DNA of 46,704 nucleotides from an uncultured Eubacteriales bacterium. Its GTDB lineage: Bacteria > Bacillota > Clostridia > Oscillospirales > Acutalibacteraceae. Each line of letters opens with the position of its first letter. Positions within the stretch are counted from its first letter, which is position 1. The position numbers and the translations under genes were made by a program. The notes beneath the pieces were generated by a model, which saw only the letters and a program-made list of their open reading frames with translations, searched no databases and had not been told where the DNA came from. The stretch lies in contig CAYOAW010000002.1 of NCBI GenBank assembly GCA_964402095.1, forward strand, positions 1-46,704, read 5' to 3'. This document shows, piece by piece, positions 20,698 through 37,006 of this stretch.

Positions 20698-22080
20698 CTA
20701 ATCGGCAGCAAGTTCCTGCATCACCCTGTTGGCTATCGGCGCGGCTTTTGCCAAACCTGAACCGCCGTTTTCGACAATAACAACAACCGCCAAAGGCAAA
20801 TCGGTTCGCTGAGAAAAACCTACAAACCAGGCATGGGGTCTTTTATCGCTCCCCACCTCAGCTGTACCGGTTTTGCCGCACATCTGAAGATTCGGGAATG
20901 TGCTGTCGCCGTAATAATTTTCAACATTTGAGCGGAGAAGCTCTTTTAATTTATGGGCGGTTGAACTGTTTATTGTAATGAGGGTTTCCTTATTCAGCGA
21001 GCCTCTTTGCGTAACCGTCTTGGTCGGGCTTACCACTTTGTCAACCAAATACGGAGAAATTCCGCTGCCGCCGTTGGCTATCGCACCCATTAGAGTAATC
21101 ATATGGTAAGGATTAGCCAAAGTGTTATATTGTCCGACACCCGCCCAGCCTAAATCCGAAGAGTTTGCTTTTGCAACAGAGAACCTGCTTTTTTCGATTT
21201 TTATACGGCCCATATAAAACTGTTTGTTAAAGCCCATCGTATTCGCTGTTGCCGTTAGCTTTTCGGTCCCCAATTCAATCGCTATACGGGCAAAAGCGGA
21301 GTTGCAGGACTTATTCATTGCCTCTTCGAAAGTAACAATACCGTGAGTCTTGCTGCAGATGACTACGCCTGTCGATGTTTGAAGCTTGCCTGTACATTTG
21401 AAAGTCCGTGTATATATATCCGGAATATTCTCCACAGCGCAAGCAGCGGTTACTGTTTTAAAAATCGAACCCGGGGTATAAACGCCAGAGAGAAAACGGT
21501 TCAGATATACACCTTCATATTCTTCGCCGGGATCATCGTTGATATTGTCCGGTTTGTTTTCAATATCGTAAGACGGCGAAGAAACCATGCAAAGTATTTC
21601 ACCGGTCTTATAATTGTAAACACCGACGGTTCCTTTCCGGCCATCAAGAGCATTGTACGCCACCTTGTTCGCCTGAGCATCGATTGTCAGATAAATATCG
21701 CTGCCCCTGCCATATTTTTTCAGCTGCCATACACCGTTTATAAAGCTGTAGCCCGACAGTTCCTGTTTATAAGCCGATTGTATTCCTGTTGAAATAAAGC
21801 CCGCGGCGTCGCCGACAATATGAAGCGTCGCTTTGCGCACAGTTCTGCTTGAGTTGTATACCCGCTTGCCGTTTTCGCTTTTCGCCAAAACCTCTCCGTC
21901 GCGATCATAGACCGCACCGGCAGAGACTGTTTGCCCGCCGCTGTAAATATGACGGTTTGCTCTGTTGGAAGCCCATATTCCGCCTTTGACAATAAATGTG
22001 CCGAACAGAAGGAATACGCCGGCAATAAAAGCAAAAACAAGTATATACAGCGCATATGCGCGTTTCGTTGTGTGGTTCAA
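20698..22080 (-). CDS. class B penicillin-binding protein (PbpA-type D,D-transpeptidase)
   Basis: SxxK (SIFK), SxN (SCN) and KTG (KTGT) motifs with an N-terminal TM. The TTG start overlaps the upstream stop (TTGA), preceded by AAGGAGAGAGG. Confidence 0.88.
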   Translation of the reverse strand: MNHTTKRAYALYILVFAFIAGVFLLFGTFIVKGGIWASNRANRHIYSGGQTVSAGAVYDRDGEVLAKSENGKRVYNSSRTVRKATLHIVGDAAGFISTGIQSAYKQELSGYSFINGVWQLKKYGRGSDIYLTIDAQANKVAYNALDGRKGTVGVYNYKTGEILCMVSSPSYDIENKPDNINDDPGEEYEGVYLNRFLSGVYTPGSIFKTVTAACAVENIPDIYTRTFKCTGKLQTSTGVVICSKTHGIVTFEEAMNKSCNSAFARIAIELGTEKLTATANTMGFNKQFYMGRIKIEKSRFSVAKANSSDLGWAGVGQYNTLANPYHMITLMGAIANGGSGISPYLVDKVVSPTKTVTQRGSLNKETLITINSSTAHKLKELLRSNVENYYGDSTFPNLQMCGKTGTAEVGSDKRPHAWFVGFSQRTDLPLAVVVIVENGGSGLAKAAPIANRVMQELAAD

Positions 22081-23351
22081 ACCGCCTCTCTCCTTTCGCG
22101 GTGATCATTTTTCTTTTTCTGCTGCCTGATATTCAATCTGAAGCCGGCGCTTTTAATAAAAGCAAAAAGCGCCCAGGAACAAATCATACTCGATCCGCCT
22201 CTGCTAACAAACGGCATCGTAACGCCTGTCAGCGGCAACAGGTCTGTAACACCGAATACATTCAGCCCCACTTGAAACAGCAGCATGGAAGCCGCAGCGA
22301 CCGCGGTGATCGCATAAAAAGCAGAATTCGATCTTCTGGCGGCGCGTATAGCGTAAACAGCCAAAAAGGCGAATGCGAGCATAATAAACAAGGCGACAAG
22401 CATCCCCCATTCCTCACAAATAACGCCGAAAACAAGATCTGTCGAGGCAGCATATATACTTCTGAGTTTGCCTTGCCCGATGCCCAACCCGAAAAGTCCG
22501 CCGCTCGAGGAATAGATTAATACTCTTGTCTGTTGAAAGCCCTTATCATCAACCGACTCCCAAACATGGCGGTAAGTCTCAAACCTTGCGGCAACATACG
22601 GTCTGAAATAGATAACCAGCATAGCCCCGATAAGAGCCCCGGTGCAAACCAAAAAAATAGTTCTGATATCACCGGAACGCATAAAGGCGATAATGATAAA
22701 TGTAAAGAAAAAAATCAAAGCGGTTCCAAAATCACGCATCAAAAAAAGAGCGCCGATACAAACTACAGCAAAGATAAGGTATTTTGACAGGCTCTTGGTT
22801 GACTGAAGCTTATCCAGCGTAACCGCTCCGACAAAAATAAACGCTATTTTGACAAATTCCGATGGCTGAACAGAAAAACCGCCTACATCTATCCAGTTAA
22901 GCGCTCCGTTAACAACCTTCGCCAAAACCAAATTAACAGCTAAAAGCCCTACTGCCGCAAAAGCGACAGGTGTCCTGAAAAACATGGCTTTATCCGGTTC
23001 ACGCAAAATCAGCATCAGCAGTGAAAAGGCCGCAAGTCCCGCAGCAACCGCAGCAAGCTGTTTGACAGCTAAGTCGTCACTGATACTTGCCGAAATCACC
23101 AGGCTGATACCCGACAGAAAAAAAGCAATCACTTCAAGCTCGATATGCGTGTTCTTCGTTATCAGCCTGCTTAAAATACAATAAATCCATTCAAGCGCGA
23201 TGAAGCCGGTAAAAACCATAAGGAGCGTATAGTTTACCTTCCCGTCCGCAAAAATCACTTGCGAAGCGGAAACGATTTGAAACACTGCAACAAAAAGCAG
23301 CGCAAGCTGCCACTTGTACGTTTTTAATTTTTCCTCAGCTATGCTGCCCAT
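22077..23351 (-). CDS. SEDS-family peptidoglycan polymerase (FtsW/RodA/SpoVE)
   Basis: Polytopic. Motifs DLVFGVICEEWG and LPLTGVTMPFVSRGGSS. Start placed at MGSIAEEK (23351) after GGTGG. Confidence 0.88.
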   Translation of the reverse strand: MGSIAEEKLKTYKWQLALLFVAVFQIVSASQVIFADGKVNYTLLMVFTGFIALEWIYCILSRLITKNTHIELEVIAFFLSGISLVISASISDDLAVKQLAAVAAGLAAFSLLMLILREPDKAMFFRTPVAFAAVGLLAVNLVLAKVVNGALNWIDVGGFSVQPSEFVKIAFIFVGAVTLDKLQSTKSLSKYLIFAVVCIGALFLMRDFGTALIFFFTFIIIAFMRSGDIRTIFLVCTGALIGAMLVIYFRPYVAARFETYRHVWESVDDKGFQQTRVLIYSSSGGLFGLGIGQGKLRSIYAASTDLVFGVICEEWGMLVALFIMLAFAFLAVYAIRAARRSNSAFYAITAVAAASMLLFQVGLNVFGVTDLLPLTGVTMPFVSRGGSSMICSWALFAFIKSAGFRLNIRQQKKKNDHRERREAV

Positions 23352-23380
23352 ATTACCACCGCATTTCGTTTCCCACAGAT

Positions 23381-23414
23381 TTACAGGGGATGGCGATAAA
23401 GCCATCCCCTGTAA
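23381..23414 (-). terminator. perfect 14-bp stem / 6-nt loop hairpin between the flavoenzyme operon and the SEDS gene (no U-tract)
   Basis: TTACAGGGGATGGC-GATAAA-GCCATCCCCTGTAA. Confidence 0.5.
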
Positions 23415-23448
23415 TCATACAACGAATTACGAAAACTGTAAACCTGTT

Positions 23449-25176
23449 TTACTTCTTTATGAAATCTCTTTTTTTGTCCTCCGGCAAATCCAGCCCCAGT
23501 GTTCCGCCCGGATTCATAAGATTGTCGGGATCAAAATGCTTTTTAAGCGCACGGTAGATATCCATTTGATTTTTTCCGATCTGTGCCTCAAGCCACGGCG
23601 CTGTCATTTTGCCTATACCATGGTGATGGCTCATCGCGGCGCCGTATTTCTGGATATTGTCCATAATACCCTGCTGATATTGAAGATACTCATCGATTTC
23701 ACTCATTTTAGCCTCAAATATGAAGTAGAGGTTTGCGCCTTGAGGATAGAAGTGGGACATATGGGTCATGCATATCGTATGGGGGCGGCTTTTACAGAAA
23801 GCACGCACGCCTTCATAAACCGGCATAAAGTTGTCCCAGTTGACAGAGCACTCAAGGGTGTCAAGCATAAGCCCGTAATCCCCCATATCCTCTCTCAAAT
23901 AAGGATCGGTAAAGCGCCCGTGTTCCCAGCCTTTTGTAACAAGCCCGGTTGTATACATAGCTCCATATTTTTTGCATATTCTTTTAATTTGATTTTTCAC
24001 ATTTTTGCTGAAATGCTCTTCGCCCTCAGTAAAGCCAAGCATTAAAACTCTGCTTCCATCCTCAAAACCTCTTGCTTTCAATATCTTATCAATCGGTGTG
24101 TCTGCAACGCCGTAAAGTCTGAAAGCAACAGCGGTTTCCTCCGGGTCGGAAAGTCGGAATACAGAAGGAAATCCGAATTCGCCCTGCATCACCTCACGCG
24201 CAGCATCAACACCGTTTTGCCAGGTTTTAAATACAAAGCTGAATCTCTTCCTGTTTTCGGGCATATATTTAAAAATACGCAGAGTCACATGGGTAAGAAT
24301 CCCGAAAGTGCCTTCGCTGCCCATCATAATTTCATCAATTGAAGGGCCGGTTGCGTTTGCGGGAAATTCGTCACTCTTGATAATTCCGGCCGGTGTAACA
24401 TATTCCTGGCTGAAAACAATATCCTCAATTTTGCCGTAATAACTGGAATTCTGGCCGGCTCCTCTTGTCACTACCCATCCGCCAACCGAGGAATATTCAA
24501 AGCTTTGCGGAAAATGACCGCAAGTATAGGCACGACTGGCCTTTAAAGTTTCGACTGCGTTATTCAATGTTTTTTCAAGGTCGGGGCCGCTCATCCCCGC
24601 CTCAACCGTAATGGTCTGGTTATGCTCGCTGAAAGCGATCACCTTGTTGAAATTCGGCCGCATATCAAGGGACACTCCGCCGCAAACGGGTTCAACTCCC
24701 CTTGTAACGGAGGACCCTCCGCCATAAACATATACAGGAATTTTCTGCTCGCAGCAGTACGCCACAATTTTAATGATGTCCTCCCTGCTGCGCGGGTATA
24801 GCACAACATCGGGCAGATTTTCAACAATACCTTTTCGAAGCCTCATCAAATCAATCATTGTTTTTCCGTATGCGACGGACAGGCGGGTATAGTTGTCTGT
24901 TTTTACATTCTCCGCACCGACAATTTCTTTGAACATATTGATTTGATTTTCACTCAAACGGCTCGGGCAATCAAAATCAACGGTCTCCAATCCCATTTCC
25001 TTTTTCTCTTTAAAATCCTCATCGGTCATCTCAAAAGTTTCTTTCATAAGCTTGTAAAGCTTTGAGTTGGGAGCTTTAAACGCTGTCGGGCCGCCCCACT
25101 TTAAAATGGAACGGTAGGATTTGCCGGGCGCCTGCTCATGATACCATTCGGGGGTAAACTCTGTTTTCTTTGCCAT
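23449..25176 (-). CDS. FAD-linked oxidase of the alkyl-dihydroxyacetonephosphate synthase (AGPS)-like type
   Basis: ATG at 25176 lies 8 nt after AAGGAGA. PCMH FAD-binding block (PDVVLYPRSREDI..VYVYGGGSSVTRG). C-terminal SHHHGIGK. N-terminal ILKWGGP resembles the AGPS WNGWG region. Confidence 0.7.
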   Translation of the reverse strand: MAKKTEFTPEWYHEQAPGKSYRSILKWGGPTAFKAPNSKLYKLMKETFEMTDEDFKEKKEMGLETVDFDCPSRLSENQINMFKEIVGAENVKTDNYTRLSVAYGKTMIDLMRLRKGIVENLPDVVLYPRSREDIIKIVAYCCEQKIPVYVYGGGSSVTRGVEPVCGGVSLDMRPNFNKVIAFSEHNQTITVEAGMSGPDLEKTLNNAVETLKASRAYTCGHFPQSFEYSSVGGWVVTRGAGQNSSYYGKIEDIVFSQEYVTPAGIIKSDEFPANATGPSIDEIMMGSEGTFGILTHVTLRIFKYMPENRKRFSFVFKTWQNGVDAAREVMQGEFGFPSVFRLSDPEETAVAFRLYGVADTPIDKILKARGFEDGSRVLMLGFTEGEEHFSKNVKNQIKRICKKYGAMYTTGLVTKGWEHGRFTDPYLREDMGDYGLMLDTLECSVNWDNFMPVYEGVRAFCKSRPHTICMTHMSHFYPQGANLYFIFEAKMSEIDEYLQYQQGIMDNIQKYGAAMSHHHGIGKMTAPWLEAQIGKNQMDIYRALKKHFDPDNLMNPGGTLGLDLPEDKKRDFIKK

Positions 25177-25193
25177 AATACAGTCTCCTTTTC

Positions 25194-25547
25194 TCAAACT
25201 TGTTCCATGTTTGCCGTTGCGACAATATCCGCTCCGAAAACATCCGGCAAAACGATATCGCCGACATGCAGGCGCTTTTCAACCCGCACATTTTTTATTA
25301 TCTTCATCGCCTCAAGCATTTTGCCCTTTGGAATTTCAGCGCTTGTTTTAACGGGAAGCCGCGGGAAATCCTCAAACACAGTCCTGACGGTAGTGGTCAG
25401 TGAACGTGTAGGATTGGTCAGCTCTGTTTTCGCAAATTCGGCACCTTTTTTGCATTGCGCGCCTTCAACTTTTATTTCTTGCCCTTCGTTTTCCACTGTC
25501 ATGCGGCAGCCGTTTGGGCAGACAATACAAGTCAGATTCATTATCAT
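25194..25547 (-). CDS. DUF1667-type small Cys-rich protein (third subunit of GlpA-type clusters)
   Basis: LTCIVCPNGCRMTVE...AQCKKG. The start is ambiguous (GTG 25550, ATG 25547 or ATG 25541). Confidence 0.75.
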   Translation of the reverse strand: MIMNLTCIVCPNGCRMTVENEGQEIKVEGAQCKKGAEFAKTELTNPTRSLTTTVRTVFEDFPRLPVKTSAEIPKGKMLEAMKIIKNVRVEKRLHVGDIVLPDVFGADIVATANMEQV

Positions 25548-25559
25548 CACCGCTGCTTT

Positions 25560-26399
25560 CTAAAATTCGTATTCCATACTGTCGTATGACACAAGAAATC
25601 CCTTTTTTTCCGCTTCCGGTACAAATTCATCGTAAGTGACAAGCCCGTTATGTGAAAAATGGTGCAGGCACCATACTGTTTTATCATCTGCAACACCGAT
25701 TTCCAGCAAACGGTTTTTAACTTCGGTACAGGTATCAATTCCCATATGCCCCTGCCTGTAATTAAAAACACAACCGGTGCAGTCAAGCGAAACAAAATCA
25801 AAATACGGTTTTGTCCGCTCCAAATATTCCCAGGTATCCTCAGGAAAATAACCGGTGTCATGCGCATAAAGCAATGTCTTCTTCCCGTCGCTGACAGCAT
25901 AAAAAACCGGCTCCAGTTCCCTGGCATGGTCAGCTTTCAATGCGGTTGCTATATAACCGCCGGCTTCAAAAGGCTCGAAAGGTTTCACGCGCTGAAACCG
26001 GACATTGGCTTTTTCATCAAGCCGGTTGTCCTCAATGATTCTGACAATCCCCTCTCCGCTTTTTTTTGAAGCGTAAAAGGTCAGCGGTATATGGCCATTC
26101 GGGGTTTTCGGATATGCGAAACAGCCTCTGCGCATATCGATATCAAGCGGATAAAGGTGGTCCGGATGCGCATGGGTAATAAGGCAGTGCTGAACCTCTT
26201 TTAAATCCAGCCCGTAATTTAAAATATGCAAGTAGGTATCGGCAGGGAAATCAATCAGCAGTTTGTCGTCAATCACTGCCTGCGAACGGGTTCGAATATT
26301 CCGTCCCCCCGCTTCCGCGGATTTTTTGCAGACATCGCAAAAACAAAAAAGCGCGGGCACCCCTTCCGCGGCGGAAGTGCCGAGATATTTTATCTTCAT
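25560..26399 (-). CDS. PhnP-like metallo-beta-lactamase-fold phosphodiesterase
   Basis: N-terminal GTSAAEGVPALFCFCDVC (CxCxxC), HxHxDH as THAHPDH, later DCTG and HHFSH. ATGA overlap with the upstream gene. Confidence 0.7.
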   Translation of the reverse strand: MKIKYLGTSAAEGVPALFCFCDVCKKSAEAGGRNIRTRSQAVIDDKLLIDFPADTYLHILNYGLDLKEVQHCLITHAHPDHLYPLDIDMRRGCFAYPKTPNGHIPLTFYASKKSGEGIVRIIEDNRLDEKANVRFQRVKPFEPFEAGGYIATALKADHARELEPVFYAVSDGKKTLLYAHDTGYFPEDTWEYLERTKPYFDFVSLDCTGCVFNYRQGHMGIDTCTEVKNRLLEIGVADDKTVWCLHHFSHNGLVTYDEFVPEAEKKGFLVSYDSMEYEF

Positions 26400-27655
26400 G
26401 AAATATCCTCCATAGTCAACTTAATCTCATTTATTGTATCCTGTTTCGGTTCGAAGCTCAAGACTTCCATCTCGGACGGGAGCAGCCTGTTGTATTTTTT
26501 TGAAAGTTCTTTTTGGCCGTTGACAGCAATTTCCGTTTTCTTTTTTCGGCAATCCTCCCTGCTGCGGAAATAAACGGTCAAAGGGCCCTTCTTATTAACA
26601 TCGTAATATTGGGGAACTTCATAAAGGAAATCATTGCTTCTGTATTGTATCTTGATTTTTTTTGTTTCGCCGGTCTTATATTCGGCTGCCGAGCGTCCCG
26701 CCAAGAATCCGCTTTGCGAAACATAGTCGACCAGATCATTGACATGCAAGGCATTGCCGCAGGAGAAAACGCCCGGTACGCTTGTCATGAGCGATTGGTC
26801 GACAAAAGGCCCCTTCGTAGCGCTGTCAATCTCAATACCGAGCGACTCGGCGATTTCATTTTCGGGCAGCAAGCCGACAGAAAGGATCAGCGCGTCGCAT
26901 TCAATCATCCTTTTGGTTGACTCAATAAACCTAAACTGCTCATCAACGCCGCAGACCTCAACCGCCTCCACTCGTTTTTCCCCGATTACCCGTGTGACAG
27001 TGGTGGAAAGATGCAAAGGAATATTAAAATCATCAAGGCATTGGCTGATATTTCTCGAAAGTCCGGCCGGCGCATTTTTAATTTCATAAACGCCTTCGAC
27101 GCTTGCCCCCTCAAGGGTTAGTCGTCGCGCCATAATCAAACCGATATCGCCGCTCCCGAGTATAACGCATCTTTTTGTCGGCATTTCTCCCATAATATTA
27201 ACAATATACTGGGCTGTTCCTGCATTGAATATCCCGGCAGGCCGTTCGCCTTGAATAAATACCTGTCTTGATGTTTTTTCACGGCAGCCGCAGGCCAGCA
27301 CAATTGTTTTTGAATGAATGAATTGCATACCTTCCGCACTCTGCAGCAGCAGTTCAAAACTGCTGTCCGGCATCCTCTTCACCTCATTGACAAATGCATT
27401 CGTAAGGCAGGTGATGCCAAGCGAATAAAACTCCGCTAAAAACCTTTCGGCATATTCAGGGCCTGTAAGCCTTTCTTTAAAATGGACAAGCCCGAATCCG
27501 TCATGGATACACTGTTTCAGAATTCCTCCGAGTTTTTTTTCGCGCTCAATCAGCAAAACATTCGCGCCGCTTTTGCTGGCTTCAACAGCGGCAGCCAAGC
27601 CCGCAGGTCCGCCGCCAAGAATTGTAACATCATATTGTTTGCCTGGATTGTTCAT
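26396..27655 (-). CDS. NAD(P)/FAD-dependent oxidoreductase (pyridine nucleotide-disulfide oxidoreductase fold), GlpA-partner type
   Basis: Two dinucleotide motifs, ILGGGPAGLAAA and ILGSGDIGLIMA. 419 aa. Confidence 0.8.
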   Translation of the reverse strand: MNNPGKQYDVTILGGGPAGLAAAVEASKSGANVLLIEREKKLGGILKQCIHDGFGLVHFKERLTGPEYAERFLAEFYSLGITCLTNAFVNEVKRMPDSSFELLLQSAEGMQFIHSKTIVLACGCREKTSRQVFIQGERPAGIFNAGTAQYIVNIMGEMPTKRCVILGSGDIGLIMARRLTLEGASVEGVYEIKNAPAGLSRNISQCLDDFNIPLHLSTTVTRVIGEKRVEAVEVCGVDEQFRFIESTKRMIECDALILSVGLLPENEIAESLGIEIDSATKGPFVDQSLMTSVPGVFSCGNALHVNDLVDYVSQSGFLAGRSAAEYKTGETKKIKIQYRSNDFLYEVPQYYDVNKKGPLTVYFRSREDCRKKKTEIAVNGQKELSKKYNRLLPSEMEVLSFEPKQDTINEIKLTMEDIS

Positions 27656-27704
27656 TATATCACTCCCAATAAGGACTGTTCGATTGCGCGGCGGCTGCCG
27701 GCCG

Positions 27705-29402
27705 TTATCCGCCGAAAACTATATTGGACCCTTCGCCGTTCTTGGTAACTTCTTCCGGTTTCATACCGGTCTGTTCACATATAATCTGCATAACCAGCGG
27801 CGAACAAAATCCGCCTTGGCATCTGCCCATTCCGGGGCGTATTCTGCGTTTTATGGCATCGATTGAAACGGCAGGCAAAGGCGAATTGACGGTGTCAATA
27901 ATTTCGCCCCTGCTGATCCCCTCGCATCGGCAAACGACAATTCCGTAATCCGGATTTTTTTTGATTGCTTCCTGTTTTTCCTCCAAAGTAAGCTTCGCCA
28001 TAACAGGCGAGACCCTTCGGTTCGGATTGTACTTTATATTTGGAACAACCTTCATTTCCCGTGCTAAAATTTCGCGGCTGATCTCCGCTGTTCTTTCCGC
28101 AATAGCGGGTGCCGCGGCAAGCCCCGGTGACTGTATCCCCGCGGCATGCACAAGATTATTTTGCCGCTCCGATTTTTCGATAATAAACTCTTCCTCATAG
28201 GTTGCAGCTCTGATACCAGCAAAATAAGTAATCACATCCGCTTTTGAAAAACCTTTTATCAAAGGCAAGTGCTTGTTTAAAACCGCATCCATGTTGTTTT
28301 TATTGGTTGAAAAGTCTTCCCTGAGAGGCTGCTCGTAAGCGTCCGGTCCAACCAGAACATTCCCGTCAATGGTTCGCATAACTCCGCCCCCTTTTGTATC
28401 AGAGGTTGCAGCCGCAAGGCCGATAAGCCCCATGGAACGGGTTACCAAAAGACCTTTTTTCTTGTCTAAAATCGCACATTCTCCCTTACGCGGGTGAATC
28501 GTAAAAAAACGGTCATCCGCCATCCCGGCAATCTTGTCCGCAAAAACTCCGGCCGCATTTATAACAAGCTTGGGCCTCACAGTACCCCTGTTTGTTACAA
28601 CACCCGTAATTTTCCCATTTTCAACCTCCATTGACTGTACGATTGTTTCCAGCGAAATTTTCACTCCGTTTTCAACAGCATTGTCAGCCAAAGCAACCGT
28701 CAGTTTGTACGGCGAAAGCACACCGGAGGATGGATACTCAAAAGCGCCAACAGCCTCATCAGTAATATTCGGTTCAATTTCCTCAAGGCGGCGGCGTGAG
28801 ATTTTACGGCCTTCAATACCCAAAAGTTTCTCACGTCTTGCAAAAACAGGCAATAAGAGCATTCCGAAAGCCTTGCTGGAAAACAAAACAAGGCTTCCGT
28901 ACCTTTCAAAAGGTACAGATAACTCCCGGCAAAGTTCAGTGTACAGGTAATTGCCGCGCACATTCATCTCGCCCCTTAGTGTGCCGGGGTGTGATGCAAT
29001 GCCGGGATGAATCATACCGTCATTGCGGGAGGAAGCGTGCATTGCAACATCGCTTTCCTTATCGACCAGCAGAATATCAAGCGCTGATTTTGAAAGCTCG
29101 CGTGCAATAGAACATCCAATAACCCCGCCGCCGATAATTAAAACATCCGGTTTCAGTTCCGCAAGAGATTCATCTGTTTTAGAAGGTTTCTTTATATCGG
29201 GTGCAGTAAATCCTTTTAGCGATATATCATTCACAACCGCTTTATATCCGAATTTCGCCGCAATTTTACCCGCTTGAACAATTTTCTGCCAATCGTCAAG
29301 TTCGCCCTCAAGGCGAACCGATTTTCTCCATTCGGAGCATTCGATGCTTTGAAATCCCTTTTTTATGAGTGCTTTCTTAATACTTCCGGTTTTGTTCTCC
29401 AT
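27705..29402 (-). CDS. FAD-dependent (DAO-family) glycerol-3-phosphate-dehydrogenase-like flavoprotein with a C-terminal BFD-like [2Fe-2S] motif and an extra ~85-aa N-terminal domain
   Basis: ATG at 29402 lies 8 nt after GGAGG. Motifs IIGGGVIGCS, SSRNDGMIHPG and VCRCE...GMGRCQGGFC. Confidence 0.8.
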   Translation of the reverse strand: MENKTGSIKKALIKKGFQSIECSEWRKSVRLEGELDDWQKIVQAGKIAAKFGYKAVVNDISLKGFTAPDIKKPSKTDESLAELKPDVLIIGGGVIGCSIARELSKSALDILLVDKESDVAMHASSRNDGMIHPGIASHPGTLRGEMNVRGNYLYTELCRELSVPFERYGSLVLFSSKAFGMLLLPVFARREKLLGIEGRKISRRRLEEIEPNITDEAVGAFEYPSSGVLSPYKLTVALADNAVENGVKISLETIVQSMEVENGKITGVVTNRGTVRPKLVINAAGVFADKIAGMADDRFFTIHPRKGECAILDKKKGLLVTRSMGLIGLAAATSDTKGGGVMRTIDGNVLVGPDAYEQPLREDFSTNKNNMDAVLNKHLPLIKGFSKADVITYFAGIRAATYEEEFIIEKSERQNNLVHAAGIQSPGLAAAPAIAERTAEISREILAREMKVVPNIKYNPNRRVSPVMAKLTLEEKQEAIKKNPDYGIVVCRCEGISRGEIIDTVNSPLPAVSIDAIKRRIRPGMGRCQGGFCSPLVMQIICEQTGMKPEEVTKNGEGSNIVFGG

Positions 29403-29476
29403 CTTAATATCCTCCGTTTTCAACGGTCATCATTCAAAAGTGCGATGCAGGAACTTTTCAGATACTATCTATTATT

Positions 29477-29494
29477 CGGAACGGAAAGCCGTTC
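29477..29494. promoter_or_regulatory. palindrome GGAACGG-N4-CCGTTCC in the operon leader (candidate operator or RNA hairpin)
   Basis: Perfect 7+7 inverted repeat read directly from the sequence. Confidence 0.4.
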
Positions 29495-29509
29495 CCTGCA
29501 ACTCATTGT

Positions 29510-29525
29510 TATTCGGTTGTCCGAA
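29510..29525. promoter_or_regulatory. palindrome ATTCGG-N4-CCGAAT next to both promoters (candidate HutC/GntR operator)
   Basis: Perfect 6+6 inverted repeat. TTATTCGG also recurs at 29471-29478 and 29508-29515. Confidence 0.4.
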
Positions 29526-29528
29526 TGT

Positions 29529-29557
29529 CTTGACATCATTTTATCACTGTGGTATGC
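29529..29557 (+). promoter_or_regulatory. candidate promoter of the GntR gene
   Basis: TTGACA (29529-34), 17-nt spacer ending TGG, then TATGCT (29552-57). Confidence 0.55.
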
Positions 29558-29565
29558 TTATGTCA
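29537..29565 (-). promoter_or_regulatory. candidate promoter of the five-gene operon
   Basis: On the minus strand: TTGACA (29565-60), 17-nt spacer ending TGA, then TAAAAT (29542-37). Confidence 0.55.
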
Positions 29566-29634
29566 AGAATATTTTCCGAGAATCCGGTTATACACGCCGG
29601 GATTTCCTCATTCAGCTAATCGAAGGTGACAGCC

Positions 29635-30372
29635 ATGTTGAACAGCCAAACCCGCCTTCCCTTGTATGTGCAGGCAGAAGACTATATTAATGAATTAATC
29701 GACTCAGGGAAGTATCCCCCAAACGCCAAGCTCCCTACCGAGAACGAGCTGATGTCGCTACTTCATGTCGGGCGCGCCACTGTGCGCGCAGCGCTGGCTG
29801 AGCTGGAGCATAACGGCAGAATTATAAAACGGCACGGTATCGGCACTTTTGTCTGCAAGCCTGAACCGTCCTACAGTTTCGAACCGCTTGTGTCCCTTTC
29901 GTATTCTTTAAAGCAAATGGGCCTTGATATAACCAACAGAATACTTTTGAATACCTTGGAAACCCCGAAAGGCGATTTGCTCAAGGGCTGGGCCAAAGAG
30001 ATGAAAATCGGCCACATCAGACGCCTCAGAATTGCCGCCGGAAATCCGGCAGCCGTCGAAGACGATTATTTTATCCCCGAACTGTATGAAGCAGTAACCC
30101 GCCTTGAGCCTTCGCAGTCTATAGCACACACCGTTCTTTCCTACCCCGATATCAACATAAACAAAGTTGAACTCAGTATTGTCATCCGCAAACCGGAACC
30201 TGAAGAACGGGAATTGCTGAATTTGGAAAGCGGCAAAAAAGTTGCCGAAATGGTGCGTTGGATTTACCGCAGTTCAAGCACCGTTCCGGTAAATTTTGTC
30301 CGGTTTGTCATGCCGGAGGACCTGATGGGCGCTTCATTTTGGGGGAAGCACGAATCCTCCGCATTAAAATAA
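29635..30372 (+). CDS. GntR-family transcriptional regulator, HutC subfamily (UTRA-type C-terminal domain)
   Basis: wHTH LPTENELMSLLHVGRATVRAALAELEHNGRIIKRHGIGTFV. About 245 aa. ATG at 29635 after GAAGGTG. Confidence 0.85.
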   Translation: MLNSQTRLPLYVQAEDYINELIDSGKYPPNAKLPTENELMSLLHVGRATVRAALAELEHNGRIIKRHGIGTFVCKPEPSYSFEPLVSLSYSLKQMGLDITNRILLNTLETPKGDLLKGWAKEMKIGHIRRLRIAAGNPAAVEDDYFIPELYEAVTRLEPSQSIAHTVLSYPDININKVELSIVIRKPEPEERELLNLESGKKVAEMVRWIYRSSSTVPVNFVRFVMPEDLMGASFWGKHESSALK

Positions 30373-33934: not shown

Positions 33935-34315
33935 ATGGCATCCGAAAAAATAGCTGCAATCATCGAAGAAATAAAGGTTCTCACCGTTCTCGAACTTTCC
34001 GAGCTTGTAAAGGCTGTTGAAGAAGAATTTGGCGTTTCCGCGGCAGCGGCAGTTGCGGTAGCGGCACCGGTTGACGGCGGCGCGGCAGCAGCAGTTGAAG
34101 AGCAGACAGAGTTTGATGTTATCCTCGCTGAAATAGGCGCGGAGAAGATCAAGGTTATCAAGGCTGTCCGTGAGCTCACAGGCCTCGGCCTTGCAGAAGC
34201 AAAAGCAGTTGTTGACGGCGCTCCCAAAGCTGTTAAAGAGCAGGTTTCCAAGGAAGATGCGGAAGCCGCGAAAGCCAAGCTTGAAGAAGCCGGCGCGAAA
34301 GTTGAGCTTAAGTAA
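33935..34315 (+). CDS. rplL: 50S ribosomal protein L7/L12
   Basis: Ala-rich hinge and C-terminus [30 protein letters not shown]. Confidence 0.95.
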
Positions 34316-34440
34316 TTTCACCTTTACGAGTTATAATCACGCGATAAACGAGTGGTATGCACAAGCCCTAAAAGGGCATAATGCTGGTCAGTGCCTTAAG
34401 GCACATCGAAACGATTCGCCAATCGCATTTCTTTCTCGGG

Positions 34441-34466
34441 CAGCCGCTTAAGCGGCTGTCTTTTTT
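34441..34466 (+). terminator. intrinsic terminator ending the rplJL transcript
   Basis: CAGCCGC-TTAA-GCGGCTG, followed by TCTTTTTT. Confidence 0.85.
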
Positions 34467-34497
34467 CCGTAAACAGATTTATGTATTCTTTGAGGGA

Positions 34498-34507
34498 GAT
34501 TTGATCT
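34498..34507. repeat. left copy of the 10-bp direct repeat GATTTGATCT flanking the AT-rich gene
   Basis: An identical decamer recurs at 37015-37024, 9 nt after the vWA-protein stop. Confidence 0.3.
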
Positions 34508-34523
34508 GTTGTTATATATTCTT

Positions 34524-34565
34524 GCAACTGATTTCTTATATATTCTTCAGTTGCTTTTTTATTTT
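34524..34565 (+). terminator. second terminator-like hairpin
   Basis: GCAACTG-N17-CAGTTGC, followed by TTTTTTATTTT. It is embedded in the direct repeat TTATATATTCTT (34512-23, 34536-47). Confidence 0.5.
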
Positions 34566-34661
34566 GCCCTACTGTATCCACAGAATAACCTCTACACTAA
34601 AAGTGCCTGTTTCCATATTTATACTTTAAATTTGCATATTTTAGGGCGAACGAAATTTTTA

Positions 34662-34690
34662 TTGACAATATTATTATCATTGTTTATAAT
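34662..34690 (+). promoter_or_regulatory. consensus sigma-A promoter of the vWA surface-protein gene
   Basis: TTGACA-N17-TATAAT, an exact consensus. Confidence 0.65.
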
Positions 34691-34714
34691 AATTTAAGAC
34701 ATGGAATATTTCTA

Positions 34715-34784
34715 TTTTTGTTCTGTCGAAGATTTCAGCACCCTTTTATTTATTTTAATTTACAAATCTTTCGCAGAACAAAAA
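34715..34784 (+). promoter_or_regulatory. long imperfect inverted repeat (about 20 bp paired) in the ~170-nt leader
   Basis: TTTTTGTTCTGTCGAAGATTT (34715-35) pairs with AAATCTTTCGCAGAACAAAAA (34764-84): 11 perfect bp, then 4 and 5 bp separated by single-nt bulges. Confidence 0.5.
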
Positions 34785-34867
34785 CATATGAAAGGATGAC
34801 TGCTGATGTAAAGAATTTGCATTTATTACAGTACTTCGTCATCCAAAAAATATATGGAGGAACAATT

Positions 34868-37006
34868 ATGAAAAAGCATCTGAAAACCATAATCTCACTA
34901 TTTTTAGCGATTGTCATGTTTACAATGGTTTTTCCCTATGCATCTGCAATAGAATATCCCGAAACGAAACTACAAACCATCTTAAATTCAATCAAAACTG
35001 ATTATTCTCAATCACTTAAAGACAAGATTTCCGATTTAATTTATGATTCGGATTATTCTGATATCATCTCCTCTCCGACTCTCAGATGCTATGCAACCAA
35101 CGGAAATTCAAAGTCATGGCCTATAAGCAATGCCGATAGTTATGGAGTTTCTGTAACAGACAGAGGAAATATTGTAAAATGGGGTTGGGGTTCTGCTGGT
35201 TGCATGTCATATGCTTGCTTTTTCACATATTCTGTTTATGGATCAATAGGAACAACTACAGAAAAAGTAAATCTAAATGATTCAAATATTGAAAAAGTTA
35301 AAGAATTGTTTACACTGAATGCTCAGCCGGGCGAACATATTCGAATAAACAACAAACATTCGATAATTTTTCTTAACTACGGAAACGATCCATCAACAAA
35401 TGAAGAAGGCTTTTACTATTGCGAATATTGGGGTGGTGGATCATATGACAGCAATACAAAGACCTGGTCTTTTAGCAGTACTAATGACCAATATAATATT
35501 AGCTTTGTTTCATACAGTAATTTTATTAAAAAATATAAAGGAATAGATTTTTATATTTATAACGCTTATGAGTCTTCGTCATTCGCAACCGATACAAACA
35601 ATGAAACAAATCCAGCAACAATTACAAGAGATATTGTTTTGGTTTTGGATGTTTCCGGCAGTATGTCAGGTACAAAAATCGCAAACACAAAAACAGCAGC
35701 CAAAAGTTTTGTCAACCAAATCATAAGCAGTACGACGAATACCCGTATTGCTCTTGTAAAATATGATTCTTATGTGTCAACGGTCAGTGATTTTACTAGA
35801 GATGGAACAGCATTAACAAACGCAATAAATTCACTCTCTGCAGGAAGCAATACAAATATCTATGGTGCATTAACTCAAGCAAGTTCACTTCTTGATGCTG
35901 GAACAGCTAAGAAAAAGTCAATAGTTCTTATGACAGATGGTGAAGCAAATGAAGGAACCTATACCTCATCAGGGACACGGCTTGCACATGATGGTTCAAA
36001 TTTTTCTGTTACCTCCTATGGTGCCGCGATATATGACCTTACAAAAGATTATAAAGAGGTAAAAGGTTATTATATTTATACTCTAGGATTTGGATTATCA
36101 ACCGGTTCGACTGCATATAACTTATTAAAAAACATTTGTTCTGTTAATTCGGCAAGCGAAGATAAATTCTGGTCTGTATCATCCAACAATGTTAACGACT
36201 TAACTATTGCGTTTGATGATATTGCCGGTTCTAACACCTCAAACAAAAGTATCCGAATAGTAATTGATTGTCCAATTGATGTTTCAATTGCTTATAACGG
36301 TTTTGCAATGTCCAGCATAGGCCTTACCGGGTCAACAAGCTCAAGCTTCGGTTCAATAACAGCTACCGGAAGCGGTATTGATAGAAATATCGAACTTAAA
36401 CTCGCTTACCATGAGGATTACATTTTAGAAATAATTGGTACTGACACCGGAACGATGGATCTTAAAGTTGAATACACGAGCGGTGATGTAACCACACATA
36501 GAACTTTTATTGGTGTTCCTGTAACAAATAAAACAATTATAACAACATCCAATACTGACTATAGGGCTGACTTTGCTTTATATGTTGATAAGGAAAATGA
36601 TGGCAGAATTGATTCTGGCTGGGAAGCCGCAGTAAATGAAACCGTGAGAGTTAAGTCAGATGACATCGTTGAACAGCTTTATCCCACAAATTCATCACCG
36701 CTTGGAGTATTTGGTTTTGACTGCAGTGATTTAGCTCTTATTTTTAAAGAATCTCGAAAGTTAAATATCATTTCAGGTGCTCCCGAAAACGGCAGTGTGC
36801 AATGGTCAACTTCGAACAAGTCTGTTGCAAAAATTGACAACGGCGTAGTTACTGGTAAAGGTACCGGTTCAGCTGTTATCACAGCGAAAGCTCTCGATGA
36901 AAACGGCAAAGAGCTCAGTATTGCAACTTGCAATGTCACAGTAAAATTAACCTGGTGGCAGTGGATTTTAAAAATCCTTTTGTTCGGTTGGATTTGGTAT
37001 TATTAA
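34868..37006 (+). CDS. secreted multidomain protein: N-terminal Cys/His (papain-fold-like) domain, vWA domain, beta-rich middle, Big_2 domain, C-terminal Trp-rich hydrophobic anchor
   Basis: ATG after GGAGG. Signal peptide MKKHLKTIISLFLAIVMFTMVFPYASA. GSAGCMSYACFF...NKHSIIFL. MIDAS DVSGSMSG...LMTDGEANEG. Big_2 idiom VQWSTSNKSVAKIDNGVVTGKGTGSAVITAKA. Ends LTWWQWILKILLFGWIWYY. Confidence 0.8.
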   Translation: MKKHLKTIISLFLAIVMFTMVFPYASAIEYPETKLQTILNSIKTDYSQSLKDKISDLIYDSDYSDIISSPTLRCYATNGNSKSWPISNADSYGVSVTDRGNIVKWGWGSAGCMSYACFFTYSVYGSIGTTTEKVNLNDSNIEKVKELFTLNAQPGEHIRINNKHSIIFLNYGNDPSTNEEGFYYCEYWGGGSYDSNTKTWSFSSTNDQYNISFVSYSNFIKKYKGIDFYIYNAYESSSFATDTNNETNPATITRDIVLVLDVSGSMSGTKIANTKTAAKSFVNQIISSTTNTRIALVKYDSYVSTVSDFTRDGTALTNAINSLSAGSNTNIYGALTQASSLLDAGTAKKKSIVLMTDGEANEGTYTSSGTRLAHDGSNFSVTSYGAAIYDLTKDYKEVKGYYIYTLGFGLSTGSTAYNLLKNICSVNSASEDKFWSVSSNNVNDLTIAFDDIAGSNTSNKSIRIVIDCPIDVSIAYNGFAMSSIGLTGSTSSSFGSITATGSGIDRNIELKLAYHEDYILEIIGTDTGTMDLKVEYTSGDVTTHRTFIGVPVTNKTIITTSNTDYRADFALYVDKENDGRIDSGWEAAVNETVRVKSDDIVEQLYPTNSSPLGVFGFDCSDLALIFKESRKLNIISGAPENGSVQWSTSNKSVAKIDNGVVTGKGTGSAVITAKALDENGKELSIATCNVTVKLTWWQWILKILLFGWIWYY

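Follow-up and report, generated by a model that had tools for sequence, protein, structure and literature searches.

The 46,704-nt stretch of DNA analysed here (the window; assembly GCA_964402095.1, contig CAYOAW010000002.1, positions 1 to 46,704) belongs to an uncultured Eubacteriales bacterium and carries an operon of five minus-strand genes with a divergent regulator. The operon is best explained as a lineage-specific variant of a widespread module composed of an entry enzyme for a glycerol-3-phosphate (G3P) monoester, a flavoprotein of the G3P-dehydrogenase type and a flavoenzyme related to AGPS. The component families are known and it is their conserved combination that is new; no description of such a module was found in open-access papers and preprints dealing with DUF1667, bacterial AGPS operons, anaerobic ether cleavage or bacterial ether-lipid catabolism. 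In the reading that is favoured here, tentatively and at somewhat less than even confidence, 1-O-radyl-G3P would be oxidised to 1-O-radyl-dihydroxyacetone phosphate (1-O-radyl-DHAP), which would then be converted to DHAP and ROH, the AGPS-like enzyme releasing the alcohol.

The sn-1 ether bonds of glycerolipids resist lipases, and anaerobic habitats (gut, rumen, sediments) are rich in plasmalogens, in plasmanyl lipids of host or dietary origin and in bacterial alkyl glycerol ethers, which serve as geochemical biomarkers. A conserved module that unites a G3P dehydrogenase with an AGPS-type enzyme is a concrete and testable candidate for anaerobic ether-lipid turnover or, alternatively, for an AGPS-dependent synthesis of bacterial ether lipids that bypasses DHAP acyltransferase. 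If true, this would provide a function for Rv2249c-Rv2252 of Mycobacterium tuberculosis and for a large orphan subfamily of FGGY kinases, and AGPS chemistry would be in use far beyond eukaryotes and myxobacteria.

Gene calls were based on a six-frame listing of open reading frames (ORFs) and on direct inspection of the junctions. The operon and its regulator comprise:

27705-29402/29423, minus strand: flavoprotein with DAO (Pfam, 220 bits) and Fer2_BFD (41.5 bits) domains
26396-27655, minus strand: Pyr_redox_2 flavoprotein (Pfam, 103.7 bits), the 'NOX' subunit of a GlpTk-type complex
25560-26399, minus strand: metallo-beta-lactamase (MBL) protein, Lactamase_B_2 (Pfam, 57 bits)
25194-25550, minus strand: DUF1667 protein (Pfam, 92.9 bits), small subunit of the dehydrogenase complex
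23449-25176, minus strand: AGPS-like protein of 575 aa with FAD_binding_4 and FAD-oxidase_C domains (Pfam, 108 + 116 bits)
29626-30372, plus strand: divergent HutC-type regulator with GntR (Pfam, 64.8 bits) and UTRA (45 bits) domains

Every domain match in the six genes exceeds its Pfam gathering score, and the original prediction, made from the letters alone, was correct in all its domain calls as well as in describing five packed minus-strand genes beside a divergent HutC/GntR gene. The stop of the NOX gene and the start of the MBL gene overlap in ATGA, the remaining gaps measure 49, 9 and 17 nt, and the AGPS-like gene starts with the ATG at 25176 behind an AAAGGAG ribosome-binding site. No convincing terminator was seen between the five operon genes.

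Conservation of the module across genomes

The same five genes accompanied by the GntR gene recur in the loci L004, L005, L012 and L093 at 59-87% protein identity, the AGPS-like protein being the best-conserved member of the cluster (87-63% identity to its orthologues, above every other member). Among close relatives, L004 and L005 hold all five genes and L001-L003 the AGPS-like gene alone, while L006 encodes the trio (DAO/BFD, NOX and DUF1667 proteins) and the AGPS-like protein without the MBL protein and with a GDSL lipase, and L008 and L009 show the order trio, FGGY kinase, AGPS-like gene. The stand-alone protein of L001 is 75% identical to that of the window; immediately upstream of its gene lies a prophage-like block (L001 1-9500) with a sheath initiator, a holin, an M23 peptidase and a serine recombinase.

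A pattern scan of the GTDB species representatives with a diverse alignment returned more than 596 AGPS-like relatives. The best 80 (50-76% identity), drawn from Clostridia, Spirochaetota, Thermotogae, Bacteroidales, Chloroflexota, Desulfobacterota and others, were examined by labelling their ORFs with phmmer; flanks were sufficient in 54. The AGPS-like gene adjoins that of a G3P-dehydrogenase-type flavoprotein in 46 of these 54 well-flanked loci, and the genes found beside it are distributed as follows:

DAO/BFD-NOX trio: 31 of 54 loci, with DUF1667 too in 29 of the 31
GlpD-type homologue (DAO + DAO_C): 15 of 54 loci
FGGY kinase: 30 of 54 loci
MBL gene: 0 of 54 loci

Trio and GlpD-type enzyme substitute for one another across loci. 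The recurrence of the five genes with the GntR gene, and of the core of trio and AGPS-like gene across phyla, implies that the arrangement is not the result of chance. The original prediction had asked whether the MBL and AGPS-like genes co-occur as a pair with the trio; for trio and AGPS-like gene this held, these being strongly co-conserved and the association extending to GlpD fusions, but the MBL gene proved to be absent from all 80 GTDB loci.

The fusions were found in a profile-free search of 1.8 billion representative sequences, in which AGPS-like::GlpD (DAO + DAO_C) proteins of ~1100 aa formed four clusters at 50% identity (P0270, P0272, P0274 and P0298); the ~1100-aa ORFs of L097 and L102 are fusions of this type too. 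Two further types were detected, namely NUDIX::AGPS-like (P0247, P0263), in which the NUDIX part could supply a phosphomonoester from a nucleotide-linked precursor, and PlsC acyltransferase::AGPS (P0346), which looks like a biosynthetic, GNPAT-AGPS-like enzyme. An ORF of 1124 aa in L076 was considered as another fusion and left unused, since in Pfam searches it resolved into AGPS-like, carbonic anhydrase and short-chain dehydrogenase/reductase (SDR) pieces and is probably an artefact of ORF calling.

Among metagenome loci retrieved with the fusion alignment, the gene after the AGPS-like-GlpD pair encodes a DAGK_cat/YegS_C lipid kinase in 10 and an FGGY kinase in 5. A PhoD-like phosphodiesterase (L107 13064-15412) follows AGPS-like-GlpD-FGGY in a locus with an AraC-type regulator; in L116, a TARA scaffold also with an AraC-type regulator, an unannotated ORF of 783 aa occupies the PhoD-like position. 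In a Bacillota genome (L023) a TetR gene, the trio and the AGPS-like gene are followed by a DAGK_cat kinase. The GlpD and AGPS-like genes are divergent in the metagenome loci L170, L153, L156, L161 and L174, with TetR near the cluster in L156 and L161, an arrangement that corresponds to the mycobacterial glpD1-Rv2250c-Rv2251-Rv2252 cluster.

In M. tuberculosis the gene order is Rv2249c (glpD1), Rv2250c (regulator), Rv2251 ('flavoprotein') and Rv2252 (diacylglycerol kinase), and the orthologues of these four genes are co-induced in M. bovis BCG (PMC4564863). This cluster is similar to the module in that a gene annotated only as 'flavoprotein' has a dehydrogenase of the GlpD type, a lipid kinase and a local regulator beside it, and differs from the window in having GlpD for the trio, a lipid kinase for the MBL protein and a regulator unlike the HutC-type GntR. 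A gene order of this kind is tied to the AGPS-like family by the environmental locus L170, where GlpD and AGPS-like genes are accompanied by a kinase that passes the model for Rv2252-type diacylglycerol kinases (PRK11914). By analogy with L170, Rv2251 is presumably AGPS-like itself.

When flanking ORFs were clustered, neither transporter nor sugar-catabolic genes were recurrent among ~130 related loci. The recurrent or adjacent neighbours were regulators (FCD/FadR_C-type GntR, TetR), DegV proteins, acyl-CoA synthetases, a GDSL lipase, 4HBT thioesterases, SRPBCC proteins and Fe-ADH. In two Clostridia (L016 11847-12968 and L039 11815-12717) the next gene downstream of the AGPS-like gene belongs to the DegV family, whose products are fatty-acid-binding and FakB-like.

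The enzymes of the operon and their relatives

In phmmer searches of the PDB, the 575-aa protein matched Dictyostelium ADPS (2uuu) at 1.2e-73 and mammalian AGPS (4bby) at 2.8e-60, as against 1e-19 for D-lactate dehydrogenases. On these matches it is assigned as AGPS-like and not as a lactate or glycolate dehydrogenase, a group with which it does not cluster, as the original prediction had anticipated. The HHH loop is a catalytic feature of AGPS/ADPS enzymes. Mutagenesis of Dictyostelium ADPS has shown that R352, R447 and Y508 matter (PMC3509576). R341, R428 and Y484 (and Y477) of the window protein align with these three residues and H517-H519 with the HHH loop, in a mapping that assumes an inferred +3 numbering offset of the PDB chain. 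In an alignment of relatives at 35-64% identity (A1), R341, R428, H517 and H519 are invariant and Y484, Y477 and H518 are conserved in at least 90%. ADPS is further distinguished by a specific N-terminal domain with a gating helix and by a hydrophobic C16 tunnel; the window protein has ~128 residues ahead of the FAD domain, of which residues 64-128 align to ADPS 74-137.

The resemblance to AGPS/ADPS (alkyl-DHAP synthase, EC 2.5.1.26; eukaryotes and the Myxococcus MXAN_1676 operon) extends from the VAO-type fold and the best match to the Arg/Arg/Tyr/HHH residues and to the aligned stretch of the N-terminal region. It is in their partners that the systems differ, those of the module being a G3P dehydrogenase and a kinase or phosphodiesterase instead of an acyltransferase, a fatty-acyl reductase or an SDR. 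Genes for an acyltransferase, a fatty-acyl reductase or an alkyl-DHAP reductase were found neither in the window nor in the loci linked to the trio or to GlpD, and PlsC-acyltransferase and SDR neighbours are confined to another AGPS clade. In a rough neighbour-joining tree without support values, Dictyostelium ADPS falls with this PlsC/SDR-linked set and not with the clades linked to G3P dehydrogenase and kinase, and the window protein lies outside the clade formed by Dictyostelium ADPS and the acyltransferase-linked bacterial genes.

The DAO/BFD protein scores below every curated cut-off for G3P enzymes (NCBIfam type 2 G3P oxidase, 222.7 bits vs 460; GlpA, 128 vs 553). Its best PDB match is Mycoplasma GlpO (4x9m, 3e-32), and by similarity it is placed nearest to the G3P oxidases/dehydrogenases. 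Its partners are not the GlpB and GlpC (CCG-domain Fe-S) of E. coli-type GlpABC; Pyr_redox_2 and DUF1667 proteins take their place. An enzyme of this composition has been characterised in Thermococcus kodakarensis (G3PDH + NOX + DUF1667/'MOX'); its genes normally lie beside glpK, and glpK-linked clusters are known from Thermotoga, C. perfringens and P. thermosuccinogenes (10.1101/2024.02.29.582781; PMC7282089). The window displays the same DAO/BFD, Pyr_redox_2 and DUF1667 architecture in one operon. Unlike that GlpTk-type complex, its trio is not linked to glpK, glpF or GlpP, stays below the cut-offs mentioned and has a BON-like N-terminal domain; moreover, the trio of the module is always followed by the AGPS-like gene, with an MBL interruption in the window lineage only. 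The N-terminal domain is located at:

29193-29402, minus strand: BON-like N-terminal domain (~70 aa) of the DAO/BFD protein, divergent, conserved across phyla

The 84-aa fragment of the window gave no Pfam match by itself, and the BON signal surfaced only with a set of 16 orthologue fragments and a profile. Pfam BON (PF04972) was matched by 11 of the 16 N-terminal fragments (best 1.5e-6), and their profile matched OsmY (8rjx) at 1.8e-4. BON domains are generally considered to be membrane- or phospholipid-binding, and such a domain is an unusual addition for a cytoplasmic flavoprotein dehydrogenase.

The FGGY kinase of the cluster reaches 151-159 bits with the GlpK model (cut-off 590) and 244-255 bits with that of xylulokinase (cut-off 380). 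Because genuine GlpK genes also occur near the cluster in L024 and L066, this kinase is not the glycerol kinase. The recently identified alkylglycerol kinase of animals is unrelated (PMC13596139). In the window neither glpK nor glpF nor GlpP was found over the 46.7 kb, and no transporter gene stands within the operon or next to it; the flanks of the other MBL-bearing loci (L004, L005, L012 and L093) were likewise free of kinase genes over 8-10 kb. The lack of kinase, glpF and transporter noted in the original prediction is thus true of the window, but the missing kinase is a peculiarity of its lineage, the usual cluster having an FGGY or DAGK_cat kinase.

The MBL protein gave an AlphaFold2 model of high confidence (predicted local distance difference test score, pLDDT, 92.6), whose top structural matches are PqqB (4z7r) and then PhnP (3g1p), with template modelling (TM) scores of 0.72-0.79, followed by YhfI, RNase Z and Apyc1. 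In 25 homologues C19, C21 and C24 (CxCxxC), H76, H78, D80 and H81 (HxHxDH), H158, D181, H247 and H250 are invariant. In fold and motifs the protein thus corresponds to a metallo-phosphodiesterase of the PhnP type. Like PhnP itself, the phosphoribosyl 1,2-cyclic phosphate phosphodiesterase of the C-P lyase pathway, it holds the CxCxxC zinc site and HxHxDH; unlike PhnP orthologues, it remains far below the family cut-off (TIGR03307, 53.4 bits vs 272.25), is only 22% identical to PhnP and has no phn genes around it. Orthology to PhnP was rejected on score and context, so that the earlier label 'PhnP-like' is retained for fold and motifs and dropped in the stricter sense.

As a member of the operon, the MBL gene is confined to the window and to L004, L005, L012 and L093, whose MBL proteins are 59-66% identical to that of the window; these relatives share the ribosomal-gene flank of the window, and L093 also has ftsW/pbp2 downstream. 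As judged from this distribution, the gene is a lineage-specific insertion and lies outside the conserved system. Its retention over substantial divergence, together with the ATGA overlap, suggests translational coupling to the NOX gene. Other MBL relatives (53-58% identity) reside in unrelated contexts, alone in L010, beside a GDPD gene in L011 and in other surroundings in L094 and L095. In L094 (7142-10167) a 58%-identical MBL gene and an Fe-ADH gene stand with a HutC-GntR gene beside teichoic-acid-type glycosyl/glycerophosphotransferase genes, a unit that could represent a different small pathway using the same phosphodiesterase family. For the window operon, the simplest reading is that a phosphodiesterase stands in for the kinase as the step supplying the phosphomonoester; the PhoD and NUDIX variants of other loci point in the same direction.

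Possible substrates and direction of the pathway

The proposed route is based on three observations: a kinase or phosphodiesterase is combined in one unit with a G3P-type dehydrogenase and an AGPS-type enzyme, and each of these parts can be replaced by a functionally equivalent enzyme without homology to it; the reaction catalysed by AGPS takes place at C1 of a DHAP derivative; and the accessory genes and the absent transporter indicate a lipid-like or endogenous substrate. In the first step 1-O-radyl-sn-glycerol-3-phosphate would be formed. As chains in ester linkage do not require a route of this kind, the radyl group would most likely be a 1-O-alkyl or alkenyl chain derived from ether lipids or plasmalogens. 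In most bacteria the orphan FGGY kinase or the DAGK-type lipid kinase would act on free radylglycerol, and in the window the PhnP-fold phosphodiesterase would act on a head-group-bearing or cyclic-phosphate form, for example a lyso-ether phospholipid. The complex of BON-domain DAO/BFD protein, NOX and DUF1667 would then oxidise C2 to give 1-O-radyl-DHAP, and the AGPS-like enzyme would use the AGPS mechanism, in which C1 is enolised, an adduct with flavin N5 forms and the substituent on C1 is exchanged; in this way the alcohol would be expelled and water (or a fatty acid) taken up, yielding DHAP for glycolysis and a fatty alcohol.

Under this scheme the module could represent an oxygen-independent cleavage of glyceryl ether lipids that is spread over gut Clostridia and Spirochaetes, Chloroflexota and Desulfobacterota of sediments, and mycobacteria, the window being the variant in which a PhnP-fold phosphodiesterase admits lyso-ether phospholipids or cyclic phosphates; taken as a whole, this is put forward with no more than limited confidence. 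The outcome would be the same as that of alkylglycerol monooxygenase (AGMO), cleavage of the 1-O-alkyl bond of glyceryl ethers. AGMO contains a di-iron centre and depends on O2; the proposed route would operate without O2, and the enzymes of the module have no homology to AGMO. AGMO is a membrane-bound, tetrahydrobiopterin-dependent monooxygenase (PMC9192799; PMC3617469) and has been named as the only enzyme able to cleave this ether bond (PMC9192799). The original prediction had also considered an ether-linked glycerophosphate as substrate, an idea that gained support from the lipid kinases and the other lipid-related neighbours. Its alternative of recycling glycerophosphodiesters or teichoic-acid fragments, in which the AGPS-like enzyme would be superfluous, found no specific support.

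Several observations weigh against a cleavage route. To our knowledge, the sole reaction shown for the AGPS family runs in the opposite direction, from acyl-DHAP and fatty alcohol to alkyl-DHAP; we know of no demonstrated case of alkoxide release with water as acceptor by this chemistry, nor of FGGY kinases with lipid substrates. The AGPS-like gene stands alone in about 8 of the 54 well-flanked loci, among them 75%-identical relatives (L001-L003), and the window's own BON similarity is sub-threshold (E 0.026; 15 bits vs 27). FCD-type GntR proteins usually sense small carboxylates, and the MBL family is found mostly in unrelated contexts, so that a single lineage connects it with the pathway. 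The roughness of the AGPS tree belongs on the same side.

The main rival is ether-lipid synthesis, which is considered unlikely. The dehydrogenase would oxidise 1-acyl-G3P (lysophosphatidate), supplied from monoacylglycerol or lysophospholipid by the kinase or phosphodiesterase, to 1-acyl-DHAP, from which the AGPS-like enzyme, running its known reaction forwards, would make 1-alkyl-DHAP with the help of a fatty alcohol, and the same NAD(P)H-linked complex may reduce the 1-alkyl-DHAP to 1-alkyl-G3P, so that DHAP acyltransferase would be bypassed. Every residue required for the known AGPS reaction is kept, and neighbouring genes for lipid kinase, DegV and acyl-CoA synthetase suit lipid remodelling equally; GNPAT is generally absent from bacteria, and alkyl glycerol ethers are produced in several host phyla (Thermotogae, Desulfobacterota). 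However, a linked fatty-acyl reductase, acyltransferase or alkyl-DHAP reductase was not found, it is the separate AGPS clade with PlsC and SDR neighbours that groups with eukaryotic ADPS, and the local GntR, TetR or AraC repressors as well as the entry kinases and phosphodiesterases are typical of inducible catabolism or salvage.

The three-step logic could also apply to a non-lipid 1-O-substituted glycerol or another polyol, such as glycosylglycerol from deacylated galactolipids, a tetritol or a pentitol, with the AGPS-like enzyme removing or exchanging a polar substituent adjacent to the newly formed ketone. FGGY kinases normally take soluble sugars or polyols, and the cluster kinase scores best, below cut-off, with xylulokinase; upstream of the L006 cluster the GDSL lipase gene is accompanied by one of the GH30 family (PF14587, Glyco_hydr_30_2), and HutC-type regulators usually sense sugar phosphates. 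This explanation is nevertheless quite unlikely, as sugar transporters, glycosidases and sugar-catabolic genes are not recurrent in the ~130 loci, the FGGY kinase is replaceable by DAGK_cat lipid kinases, and the DegV, acyl-CoA synthetase, FadR_C and BON signals favour lipids. Least probable, indeed improbable, is that the operon encodes a GlpTk-type G3PDH paralogue for plain anaerobic G3P oxidation in which the FAD-linked oxidase and a generic hydrolase are chance passengers. The trio does agree in architecture with the characterised complex of Thermococcus and with glpK-linked clusters, and some sources label the DAO protein as glycerol-3-phosphate dehydrogenase. Against a passenger gene speak the adjacency across phyla, the GlpD fusions and the position of the AGPS-like protein as best-conserved member; furthermore, the linked kinase is not GlpK and a real GlpK coexists nearby, glpF, glpK and GlpP are missing from the window, and the DAO protein stays below all cut-offs for G3P enzymes. 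On the same evidence plain glycerol catabolism was rejected as the principal explanation, in line with the original prediction, which had argued for something other than ordinary glycerol catabolism.

Regulatory region and genomic surroundings

The divergent regulator shows the architecture of the HutC subfamily, with an N-terminal GntR winged helix and a C-terminal UTRA domain, and its divergent placement is kept in L004, L005, L012, L093, L006 and L008. In the clusters of other lineages an FCD/FadR_C-type GntR, a TetR or an AraC regulator is found in place of the HutC type. The two best promoter-like sites of the region, identified as consensus matches, lie back-to-back in the intergenic region at 29403-29625, where the following elements were recognised:

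29528..29568, no strand assigned: divergent predicted promoters (consensus matches) within an imperfect inverted repeat (TCTTGACA...TGTCAAGA)
29512..29525, no strand assigned: palindrome TTCGG-ttgt-CCGAA, just downstream of the -10 box of the operon

The predicted minus-strand promoter is TTGACA-17-TAAAAT (29566-29538), with 11/12 matches and an extended TG, and the predicted plus-strand promoter is TTGACA-17-TATGCT (29530-29558); the arms of the inverted repeat around them measure 20 nt. In L093, L012 and L004 the -35 and -10 boxes are conserved as well. Across the window and these same three loci the palindrome reads TTCG(G/A)ACAACCGAA, with a single variable position and diverging flanks, which makes it a candidate operator of the GntR repressor. 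A HutC-type GntR protein bound at this conserved palindrome would repress the operon until some intermediate builds up.

The operon is flanked by ftsW/pbp2 on one side and by rpmG-secE-nusG-rplKAJL on the other. The same-strand genes downstream (20698-23405, minus strand) encode FtsW/RodA and a transpeptidase of the penicillin-binding protein 2 (PBP2) type, an order repeated in L093. The ftsW gene starts 43 nt past the AGPS-like gene, and in this gap (23405-23448) a terminator-like site is missing and the one promoter-like match is weak, so that the operon transcript may extend past its last gene; read-through into the ftsW/PBP2 genes is possible on this layout. The rest of the window has a housekeeping character (ribosomal proteins, nusG/secE, pbp2/ftsW, ABC exporters, gdh and others), and by the names of its homologues the organism belongs with gut Oscillospiraceae/Eubacteriales. 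At 34001-36000 the G+C content falls to 0.374, compared with ~0.45 elsewhere, a segment that coincides with the start of a gene for a 762-aa VWA-domain protein (34718-37006).

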